Source: a bacterium
GTDB taxonomy: Bacteria > Patescibacteriota > Minisyncoccia > Minisyncoccales > MHMH01
Assembly (NCBI GenBank): GCA_030648815.1
Contig: JAUSHA010000029.1
Coordinates: 1-19,473, forward strand
Length of the DNA: 19,473 bases
Direction of reading: 5' to 3'
Shown here: piece by piece, positions 14,413 to 15,537 of the stretch
Layout of the letters: each line of letters starts with the position of its first letter
Numbering within the stretch: position 1 is the stretch's first letter
The notes under the pieces: generated by a model
Databases searched by the model: none
Told to the model about the DNA's origin: nothing
Seen by the model: the letters and a program-made list of their open reading frames with translations, nothing else
Translations under genes and position numbers: made by a program

Positions 14413-15537
14413 CTATTTTCTGAATACCCCAAAGAACTTTTCGCTTTCTCGCGGGTCTTTAATGGCATCCACCATCGCTGTCATTTCGCCATCGATCAGC
14501 TTTTGACCATCTAATGCTTTACCTAAGCCGACGAGGATATTACCAAAGTTTGGGCTATTGTCGACTTCCGGCTTATCGTGACAGAACCTAGCGATTGTCA
14601 TTATCATGCCGGGACCAGACCGCTCAGCTCGTCGGATCATTCTGTCCCACGCATCGAGATTAAGTTCGGTAAAATGCTCTACGAATAATCGCATCCTCTG
14701 AAGATAAAGATCGTAGAAAGCAGGCCTTCCGTCCTGATAGTAGTAACTGCAACGGCTTACCATGCCCGCCGCTCCGATAATCTTTTCATGAAGGCGAGGA
14801 GAACGCTTTAGTGGTGCCCAGTGCCAAGCCTCGTAAATACTCATTGATTCGGAAAGCGGGAAATCAGAAGAACAATCATCGTACTCTTTGTTTTCCCAGA
14901 CTCGCACTATCTTGTGATTGAAATAATGACGGCTGATATCGCTCGGCTCAATAGCTGAAACTTTCCGGTTCCAGGGCTGAGGATATATGACGCGGATTAA
15001 TTTTTTGCCATCCTCTTCTACTTCTTCCCACTTGTCCTTATTTGTTTCAAAGTATTGCTTGACCCGCTCACCTTGTAACCAAAGGCCGTCAAAAATCTCT
15101 GGATAGAAGTATAGATAACCGGCTTCAGTATCCCACCTCTTAGCCTTCATTGTGATATCTGCTATGCCGGAGTCATCCCCGTTTCTTTGGATGAACGAAA
15201 ACTGAACCCTAGTACCATCAATGATGTCATAATAAGTGACGGCACCGCACAGTTCACACTTGTGTCCATGGGATTGGATGCCACACACATCAATCAAGCC
15301 ATTACAAGATGCACATTTCCCCCGACGCACATCAATATGAGCGAACCAAAGCGACCAGCCATTCTTCTCCATGGTCTCCACGCTAACGCCGTCCTTCTTT
15401 CGATAATCAGCCTCACGTAGATTGTCGATTTGGTAACCGACCCTACGGAGCTCGTCGAAGAGACTCTCGAGAGCAGATTGACTTTTTACGTACAGATCAC
15501 CACAGATTTCAACCACGTCTTTTATTTTTTCCAACAT
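14413..15537 (-). CDS. Hypothetical protein with a Cys/His cluster (possible zinc-binding); no family recognised.
   Basis: ~374 aa from ATG 15537 (MLEKIKDVVEICGD...) with AAAGGAGAG SD. The track's longer 420 aa version reads through the promoter. Cluster CASCNGLIDVCGIQSHGHKCELCG. Visibly higher GC and GC3-rich codons than neighbouring genes. Confidence 0.5.
   Translation of the reverse strand: MLEKIKDVVEICGDLYVKSQSALESLFDELRRVGYQIDNLREADYRKKDGVSVETMEKNGWSLWFAHIDVRRGKCASCNGLIDVCGIQSHGHKCELCGAVTYYDIIDGTRVQFSFIQRNGDDSGIADITMKAKRWDTEAGYLYFYPEIFDGLWLQGERVKQYFETNKDKWEEVEEDGKKLIRVIYPQPWNRKVSAIEPSDISRHYFNHKIVRVWENKEYDDCSSDFPLSESMSIYEAWHWAPLKRSPRLHEKIIGAAGMVSRCSYYYQDGRPAFYDLYLQRMRLFVEHFTELNLDAWDRMIRRAERSGPGMIMTIARFCHDKPEVDNSPNFGNILVGLGKALDGQKLIDGEMTAMVDAIKDPRESEKFFGVFRK

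Follow-up and report, generated by a model that had tools for sequence, protein, structure and literature searches.

How did a gene without any named relatives come to separate two genes that lie side by side in related bacteria, and what might its product do there? The question is raised by an open reading frame (ORF) encoding 374 amino acids on the minus strand of a 19,473-nucleotide contig (JAUSHA010000029.1; the whole contig is called the window below), whose host is placed by YchF similarity among the Nealsonbacteria-like Paceibacteria of the candidate phyla radiation (CPR, or Patescibacteria). A preliminary description of this DNA had proposed an acquired accessory gene rather than a part of the core genome. 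This proposal found support, mostly in evidence beyond that description: the synteny of the site, the codon usage of the gene and the rarity of its family. On balance, we lean, at slightly better than even, towards a joint reading in which the gene is a horizontally acquired cassette resembling the morons of phages and its product most likely a non-catalytic binder with a strain-specific role. The ORF itself is genuine, running from an ATG at 15537-15535 to a stop codon at 14413-14415 behind an AAGGAG ribosome-binding site (Table 1), and the identical NCBI protein (P0001) is annotated as 'hypothetical protein Q7R84_01635' on a contig of a metagenome-assembled genome (MAG). A longer, TTG-initiated ORF reaching 15675 was considered and rejected, as homologues align from the ATG methionine instead.

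Acquisition is argued for first by the orthologous site in relatives. Three contigs with YchF proteins 86-88% identical to that of the window (L034, L035 and L036) were compared, and the gene is present at the cupin/ychF site in none of them. In L035 and L036 (YchF 88% and 86%, cupin 77-80% identical), 9 bp separate the cupin stop codon from the ychF start codon, the gene order being 224-aa protein, cupin, ychF and HI0933-like oxidoreductase in the former and cupin, ychF in the latter. The junctions read ...GAGAGCTAA-TATTGACCC-ATGCCT in L035 and ...ACGGAGTAA-AAATTATTC-ATGCCT in L036, and the predicted empty cupin/ychF site is GAGTAAATTATG. In L034 (YchF 88%), the two genes are separated by four unrelated ones, none of which belongs to the zinc-ribbon family of the inserted gene. 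Proteins flanking the site are 69-88% identical and collinear in this comparison, and tblastx revealed that the window is collinear with L035, at protein identities of 77-88%, save for two extra blocks (14267-15796 and 11839-13198). The former corresponds to the gap between cupin gene and ychF, which holds only the 374-residue gene plus its signals. Given the 9-bp junctions in relatives and the collinearity with L035 outside the extra blocks, the gene is therefore part of a 1530-bp insertion relative to the nearest available relatives.

Codon usage points the same way. The preliminary description had relied on base composition, estimating roughly 50% GC for the gene against ~40% for its neighbours and calling its codons rich in GC at third positions (GC3). 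The GC estimate was overstated: the gene has 46.0% GC and 49.1% GC3 in a window of 42.8% GC, compared with means of 42.1% (s.d. 4.1) and 43.3% (s.d. 5.8) in the other 17 ORFs, corresponding to z-scores of 0.95 and 1.0. Three window genes are GC-richer than the ORF and a fourth is about equal (45.6%). With z ~1 and values within the range of the window, GC and GC3 were discarded as evidence of transfer. Synonymous codon choice, conditioned on amino-acid content, is a strong outlier, with an excess of 0.162 nats per codon against -0.05 to +0.055 in 16 other genes (z -7.9). The gene favours TTC, ATC, AAG, GGT, CGA, TGT and GCT, and its neighbours favour TTT, ATT, AAA, GGA, AGA, TGC and GCC. Measured against the 17 window genes, none of them known as highly expressed and none ribosomal, its codon usage appears foreign to its surroundings and is by far the most atypical. 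The proposal of acquisition survives the refuting condition that the preliminary description had set, namely ordinary GC and codon statistics together with synteny conserved across relatives.

Strong hairpins on either side of the gene, which the preliminary description had pointed out, are real and far beyond chance (folding energies z -4.5 to -9.0), and a further one (hairpin 3) was added. Hairpins 1-3 all lie between the cupin gene and the promoter region of the ORF. The cupin transcript most likely ends at hairpin 1, which overlaps the stop codon of that gene; hairpin 2, whose T-run is on the plus-strand side, opposite to the gene, may terminate transcription running the other way. Downstream of the gene, an intrinsic terminator begins 18 nt past the stop codon and consists of a 14-bp stem with nine GC pairs, then CUUCUUUUU. 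On the gene strand, an intrinsic-terminator U-run is present at three of the four hairpins. The four have no sequence in common and each is unique within the window; 94 metagenome contigs contain the stem of hairpin 1, always as a single copy and never together with a family gene, and the one extended match among them falls within a glycosyltransferase ORF. Because of these U-runs, the dissimilarity and uniqueness of the hairpins and the single-copy stem, they would appear to be ordinary terminators rather than repetitive extragenic palindromes (REPs) or IS200-type ends. A hairpin behind the gene is also common to the family: in 22 of 22 bacterial or phage-like loci, one of -15.7 kcal/mol or lower starts within ~60 nt of the stop codon (in most within 34 nt), the 1% energy quantile of random 44-nt windows being -18.1.

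Taken as a whole, the block between the cupin gene and ychF would form a transcription unit complete in itself and insulated from its surroundings. The three hairpins would stop transcription arriving from the cupin gene; a promoter-like site, a strong ribosome-binding site, the gene and a very strong intrinsic terminator would follow; and a further promoter-like site ahead of ychF (14272-14301) could re-supply the transcription of that gene. Such a layout is understandable for DNA inserted into a tight gene pair, and it agrees, as a prediction, with the earlier characterization of the gene as insulated by a strong terminator on one side and hairpins on the other. Between the promoter-like site and the ribosome-binding site of the inserted gene lies a perfect palindrome, GGCTTTTGAAAAGCC (15606-15620), a possible operator that would fold only weakly as a hairpin (-5.9 kcal/mol, z -1.95). 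No Rfam family and no tRNA were found in the window.

For single-gene cassettes of this kind, the term 'moron' is used (the Hendrix/Juhala concept), defined in phage and prophage genomes. As in phage morons, a single gene lies between genes that are adjacent in relatives, has its own promoter and terminator (here predicted), is atypical in composition and has a function not needed by the flanking operon. Unlike them, the present gene resides on a CPR chromosome and has no phage genes in its surroundings.

The third line of evidence is the rarity and scattered occurrence of the family. A search of 5.8 billion proteins returned 128 clusters at 90% identity, all of them full length, unnamed or 'hypothetical' and 34-72% identical, the best match apart from the identical entry being 72% identical. 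An exhaustive hidden Markov model search of 1.84 billion representatives yielded only 237 clusters at 50% identity, compared with >7,900 matches for YchF; next to a universal gene in these databases, the family is scarcer by a factor of roughly 30 or more. A second profile search from the most divergent members added nothing new and no Pfam-annotated fusion partner, leaving the family closed, and nothing specific to it was found in the literature. The earlier remark that the protein has 'no recognisable family' thus applies to curated libraries only, for it belongs to a well-conserved, unnamed family. Bacterial hosts, according to MAG labels, comprise Paceibacteria, Magasanik-, Woese-, Collier-, Kerfeld-, Buchanan-, Kaiser-, Sacchari- and Gracilibacteria. 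Members also occur on DPANN contigs; one is on a contig of a Nanoarchaeota single-cell genome that is genuinely archaeal, with a split archaeal rpoB 1.5 kb away, and another on a 327-kb jumbo-phage-like contig from IMG/VR (L032), where its neighbourhood is phage-like as well (T4-type polynucleotide kinase (PNKP), a helix-turn-helix regulator, HD_4, DUF6011 and LPD29). In a neighbour-joining tree, archaeal sequences are separate and bacterial ones match the submitters' taxonomy only in part, MAG labels being unreliable.

Gene contexts vary accordingly from locus to locus. No neighbour gene recurs across 34 loci, and bacterial members are usually separate transcription units with gaps of at least 70 bp to their neighbours. 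The family gene is found between VanW and Lon (L001/L002), after HU, YmdB and RNase Y (L003), after a ligase-like gene (L007), between rpsJ and rplC of the S10 operon (L008), after genes for a CCA-adding enzyme and Rel/SpoT (L132), and convergent with a large serine recombinase gene near a PADLOC candidate defence gene (L133). The last is the only one of ~16 distinct contexts with a candidate defence gene nearby, and no association with defence islands was apparent. A nucleotide or tRNA theme is possible from the neighbours in L132 and L032, albeit anecdotal.

To consider what the product might do, we turn to its architecture. AlphaFold2, run with the family alignment, returned a model with a pLDDT of 94.1 and a pTM of 0.81, in which four parts can be distinguished (Table 1). 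The N-terminal subdomain has the order strand-strand-helix-strand and conserves Y16, K18, G34 and Y35. It is followed by the Cys/His cluster CASCNGLIDVCGIQSHGHKCELCG that the preliminary description had singled out, and which is borne out by the alignment: C75, C78, H90, C94 and C97 are invariant in 59 members, spaced C75-x2-C78-x11-H90-x-H92-x-C94-x2-C97 and placed on short beta hairpins by DSSP. (Residue numbers here are true ones; those of the alignment tool are one lower, as its first sequence is without the ATG codon.) The C-terminal helical module, behind the beta-rich middle domain, is the most conserved part, with the motifs SIYEAWHWAPL, YYYQDGRPAF, FVxHFT, SGPG, FCH and PNxGN. Further residues invariant in the 59 sequences are Y35, D136, P227, T290, G308 and P309; Y16, K18, H92, E95, N207, W238, H250, Q268, D269, G270, D298, C319, P329 and N330 are near-invariant. 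In short variants of ~235-265 aa, what remains is the N subdomain plus the helical module, without the beta region and often without the ribbon; we therefore regard this subdomain and module as the minimal core. With a pI of 5.8 (family median 6.3) and no transmembrane segment, the product may tentatively be described as a soluble, cytoplasmic, multidomain and zinc-binding protein.

Several observations count against a moron-like cassette encoding a binder. The block has no integrase, tRNA or inverted repeats marking it, and the 6-bp repeat at its ends is merely suggestive. GC and GC3 are no outliers, and the atypical codons could reflect high expression, not foreign origin. Absence from relatives rests on three contigs, looked at in the cupin/ychF site only, and a deletion in these relatives instead of an insertion in the window is possible. 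Concerning the product, the HD_4, Rel/SpoT, CCA-adding enzyme and ligase-like neighbours were each seen in only one or two loci, and the mild acidity of the protein does not favour nucleic-acid binding.

The 6-bp repeat just mentioned bears on the first alternative. TAAATT is found at both ends of the block, one copy including the cupin stop codon and the other abutting the ychF start codon; the pair is suggestive, not proof, of a target-site duplication, as the minus strand contains 14 copies of the hexamer over 19.5 kb, so that one would fall this close to the junction, within a few bases, by chance with p ~0.01. Such a duplication would fit a selfish mobile gene, that is, a nuclease or transposase inserting its own cassette between conserved genes in the style of a homing endonuclease or a minimal insertion sequence (IS). 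The precise insertion between two conserved genes, the other family member inside the S10 operon and the patchy distribution across domains and onto a phage-like contig are all in keeping with this idea, and DNA might be bound or cut with the help of a zinc ribbon that has an invariant histidine. Free-standing homing-endonuclease genes and small IS resemble the cassette in just these respects: they are intergenic between conserved genes and patchy, with a possible 6-bp target duplication. However, no nuclease or transposase family was detected by sequence or fold, including any HNH, GIY-YIG, LAGLIDADG, DDE or HUH motif or fold; the block is without terminal inverted repeats; there is one copy per contig and no near-identical copy, the best other match being the 72% one; conservation extends over all four domains, in the manner of a cellular protein, and the ribbon is missing from short variants; and a chance probability of ~0.01 for the repeat is not negligible. 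We consider a selfish gene of this type improbable.

Marginally less credible still is an ancestral, vertically inherited gene that was lost in the sampled relatives, in which case the 9-bp junctions would be deletion scars and the gene an ordinary lineage-specific one. The family is indeed widespread across CPR classes and conserved at full length, some of its clades follow taxonomy (a Collierbacteria pair with Woesebacteria near them, and the archaea as one clade), and the GC content of the gene is ordinary. Against this, two independent relatives have an identical, tight spacing of 9 bp that resembles an operon junction, the third has different genes at the site, and the codon usage is a strong outlier; moreover, the family is far rarer than a universal gene and its neighbourhood differs in every lineage.

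Comparison with known families and folds, from which the binding role derives, also bears on a catalytic alternative. Searches of Pfam, NCBIfam, PADLOC and PHROGs, and of PDB sequences with the single protein and with a profile, gave no match above threshold, and PADLOC-DB 2.0 contains no defence model matching the protein. Below threshold, Pfam zinc ribbons matched part of the 59 members, namely Rrn7 (28/59) and ACC (21/59), with Rrn7 (PF11781) reaching 14 bits against a gathering threshold of 27.1 and a best E-value among the 59 members of 0.0021. With the TFIIB/Rrn7 zinc ribbons (PF11781 and PF08271), to which about half of the members show weak Pfam matches, the cluster shares two CxxC knuckles on short beta hairpins. 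It differs from them in the invariant H90 and the near-invariant H92 and E95 beside the second knuckle, the remainder of the 374-residue protein is unrelated to transcription factors, and scores are far below gathering. The label 'TFIIB/Brf1' given by JGI to one member (P0098) rests on the ribbon alone.

Among fold matches, the only recurrent theme, a weak one, was an alpha/beta sandwich with a helical domain behind it. Such an architecture is found in proteins with the Pol-beta-type nucleotidyltransferase (NTase) fold, such as Rel/SpoT synthetase, small alarmone synthetases, LnuA/ANT and MenT, as well as in RsfS/Iojap, a non-catalytic relative of the NTases, and in the topologically similar sandwich of NuoC/NDUFS3. 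By the predicted model, the minimal core may thus weakly resemble an NTase-type sandwich (Rel/SpoT synthetase, RsfS or NuoC), a likeness that we propose with low confidence. Unlike NTase-fold proteins, the present one has no catalytic carboxylates and no sequence or profile similarity to them, and it carries a zinc ribbon and a 130-residue beta domain inserted into the fold.

An active but highly diverged RelA/SpoT-type NTase (toxSAS-like or other), modifying nucleotides or tRNA under regulation by the ribbon and helical module, could be read from two contexts: on the phage-like contig, the family gene is followed, two to three ORFs further on, by that of an HD_4 hydrolase, and in L132 it comes after those for the CCA-adding enzyme and Rel/SpoT. 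The residues of the N subdomain speak against it. In the 59-member alignment, this subdomain has no invariant acidic residue and neither the NTase signature hG[GS]...DxD nor a third carboxylate completing the triad, its conserved positions being Y16, K18, G34 and Y35 instead. The motifs RxKxxxSxxxK and ExQxRT of RelA/SpoT homologue (RSH) proteins were not found either, and some members have G or H in place of E236 in the SIYEAWHW motif. At E<=1, 25 families were listed for the 59 members, RelA_SpoT not among them, and hhalign against a genuine RSH protein gave a probability of 0.1-0.2%, below 1%. We regard catalysis of this type as quite unlikely.

With the NTase theme weak, the carboxylates missing, RelA_SpoT unmatched and hhalign below 1%, we filed the protein under no family; it is not assignable to any known one by the sequence or fold libraries used. 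Because its possibly NTase-like core has no catalytic carboxylates, the protein would most likely be a binder of some partner (protein, nucleotide or RNA) and not act by nucleotidyl transfer. Returning to the moron-like cassette, our best guess for its product is a non-catalytic binding or sensor protein of a mobile or conflict context. Its role appears strain-specific and not housekeeping-like, possibly in virus-host conflict, although we say so with low confidence. Bolder, and rather unlikely in our estimate, is the proposal that it is the founding and structurally novel member of a mobile single-gene system of CPR bacteria, DPANN archaea and their giant phages, for instance a zinc-dependent sensor or effector in conflicts of virus and host or of symbiont and host, which might even drive its own insertion between conserved genes.

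Finally, that the gene is cargo mobilized by the neighbouring REP-associated tyrosine transposase (RAYT)/IS200-like Y1 transposase, with the hairpins as REP-like or IS200/IS605-like ends, is largely refuted and very improbable: strong hairpins do bracket the cassette, as they do such elements, a Y1_Tnp gene lies 1.2 kb away, and the RAYT region is itself variable between relatives, but the hairpins are dissimilar, found nowhere else in the window and, for hairpin 1, single-copy in 94 contigs without the gene, three of them bear ordinary terminator U-runs on the gene strand with that of hairpin 2 on the opposite side, and ychF separates the cassette from the RAYT gene, which together with a hydrolase gene forms a second, independent insertion. 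Of the earlier statement that the gene lies next to a REP/RAYT unit, what stands is the proximity of a Y1-transposase-like gene (12423-13199); this gene is located beyond ychF in a different insertion, and the suggested link between the hairpins and REP/RAYT elements fell away.

That second insertion relative to L034 and L035, at 11839-13198, lies between the ychF and HI0933-like oxidoreductase genes and contains a serine hydrolase gene (11838-12380, PF06821) and the Y1_Tnp/RAYT-like gene (12423-13199), whose start overlaps the ychF stop codon. In the relatives, ychF and the oxidoreductase gene are 7-45 bp apart, and L034 carries a RAYT homologue elsewhere (17188-17934).

Genomes of CPR bacteria and DPANN archaea are tiny, about half of their genes lack annotation and their acquisition of genes is little understood; orphan families are common in the CPR. 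Against this background, the locus presents a clean, base-pair-resolved insertion of a single gene that splits an operon-like pair and is predicted to bring its own transcriptional insulation, with cargo from a family common to two domains and a jumbo-phage-like contig. The event is of a familiar kind; the cargo is unclassifiable with the libraries used. As a compact family of ~375 aa with a confident model and few invariant residues (the C4 ribbon, H90, D136, T290 and G308-P309), it is a tractable 'dark matter' target. Should it prove a true conflict or mobility factor, it would represent a new type; as a lineage-specific binding protein, it would be an ordinary orphan gene. Follow-up seems reasonable in view of the clean insertion, the distribution across domains and onto a phage-like contig, and a fold that is modelled with confidence yet has no match.

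Table 1. Coordinates of the inserted block, its signals and protein domains, the flanking genes and a separate gene cluster of the window.
Feature	Position	Strand	Basis or remark
Inserted block, 1530 bp, cupin stop codon to ychF start codon	14267-15796		9-bp junction in the two closest relatives found
Cupin_2 gene, upstream anchor of the insertion site	15797-16192	minus	Comparison with relatives
ychF (ribosome-binding ATPase), downstream anchor	13199-14266	minus	Comparison with relatives
Direct repeat TAAATT, left copy	15794-15799	minus	Includes cupin stop TAA
Direct repeat TAAATT, right copy	14267-14272	minus	Abuts ychF ATG
Coding sequence, 374 aa	14413-15537	minus	Unnamed family, mainly CPR bacteria and DPANN archaea
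Shine-Dalgarno AAGGAG	15542-15547	minus	4 nt 5' of ATG; read off the sequence
Candidate sigma-70-like promoter TTGATA-17-TAGTAT of the inserted gene	15647-15675	minus	Consensus match only
Promoter-like site TTTACA-18-TAGGAT, distal end of the insert	14272-14301	minus	Consensus match only
Hairpin 1, 14-bp perfect stem then UUUU	15768-15798	minus	-21.1 kcal/mol, z -7.3
Hairpin 2, 12-bp perfect stem	15733-15759		-17.8 kcal/mol, z -7.5
Hairpin 3, 9-bp stem then UUUUAAUU	15686-15708	minus	-11.7 kcal/mol, z -4.5; absent from the preliminary description
Intrinsic terminator of the inserted gene	14364-14395	minus	-27.6 kcal/mol, z -9.0
N-terminal alpha/beta subdomain, ~residues 1-67	15337-15537	minus	AlphaFold2 model, DSSP, alignments; boundaries approximate
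C4 zinc-ribbon cluster, residues 75-98, CASCNGLIDVCGIQSHGHKCELCG	15244-15315	minus	Alignment columns, DSSP
Beta-rich middle domain, ~residues 109-236, invariant D136	14830-15213	minus	Alignments, AlphaFold2 model; boundaries approximate
C-terminal helical module, ~residues 237-374	14416-14829	minus	Alignments, AlphaFold2 model
vWA-like gene	1367-2230	minus	Motif reading
Hanks-type Ser/Thr kinase	2258-3079	minus	HRDIKPGN motif
Metallophosphoesterase	3086-3799	minus	DIHGN/GNHD motifs
Zinc-ribbon plus FHA-like protein	3862-4425	minus	Motif reading
VWA_2 protein	4403-5614	minus	Pfam
M78/IrrE-like HExxH peptidase	5654-6286	minus	Pfam

Several loci of other family members have features of their own. 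In L008 (7120-10590) and also in L016, the family gene and three small unannotated ORFs (102, 167 and 125 aa) lie inside the S10 operon, breaking up the near-universal succession of rpsJ and rplC in an unusual way. In L003, on a 1.27-Mb contig, the 1.6 kb directly downstream of the family gene (9249-10865) contain no called gene. In L132 (2903-7134), the family gene stands directly behind the CCA-adding enzyme gene, on the same strand with a gap of 110 bp, and the Rel/SpoT gene. The stretch 1-9333 of L133, which encodes a 562-aa serine recombinase, a DUF2326 protein (matching PADLOC candidate PDC-M68B), a DUF4145 protein and an Omega-repressor-like protein, looks like an integrated mobile or defence region. 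The only fusions in the searches were P0155 (2017 aa), with the family domain at residues 266-649 and a PHP domain at 901-971, and P0078 (653 aa), with a Cys-rich N-terminal extension of 260 aa that has no Pfam match. Another N-terminal extension, MPNxSKxNDPRFWxRWxxxGA, is conserved in P0021, P0030, P0076, P0082, P0113, P0120, P0115, P0105 and P0119.

Elsewhere in the window, the minus-strand genes at 1367-6286 (Table 1) form a cluster resembling a signalling or conflict module, in which the VWA_2 and M78 assignments come from Pfam and the others were read from motifs. On the plus strand, 6516-9008 encodes an 830-aa protein resembling the Major Vault Protein (MVP), with the MVP repeat (Vault_3), MVP shoulder and SPFH/Band 7 domains.

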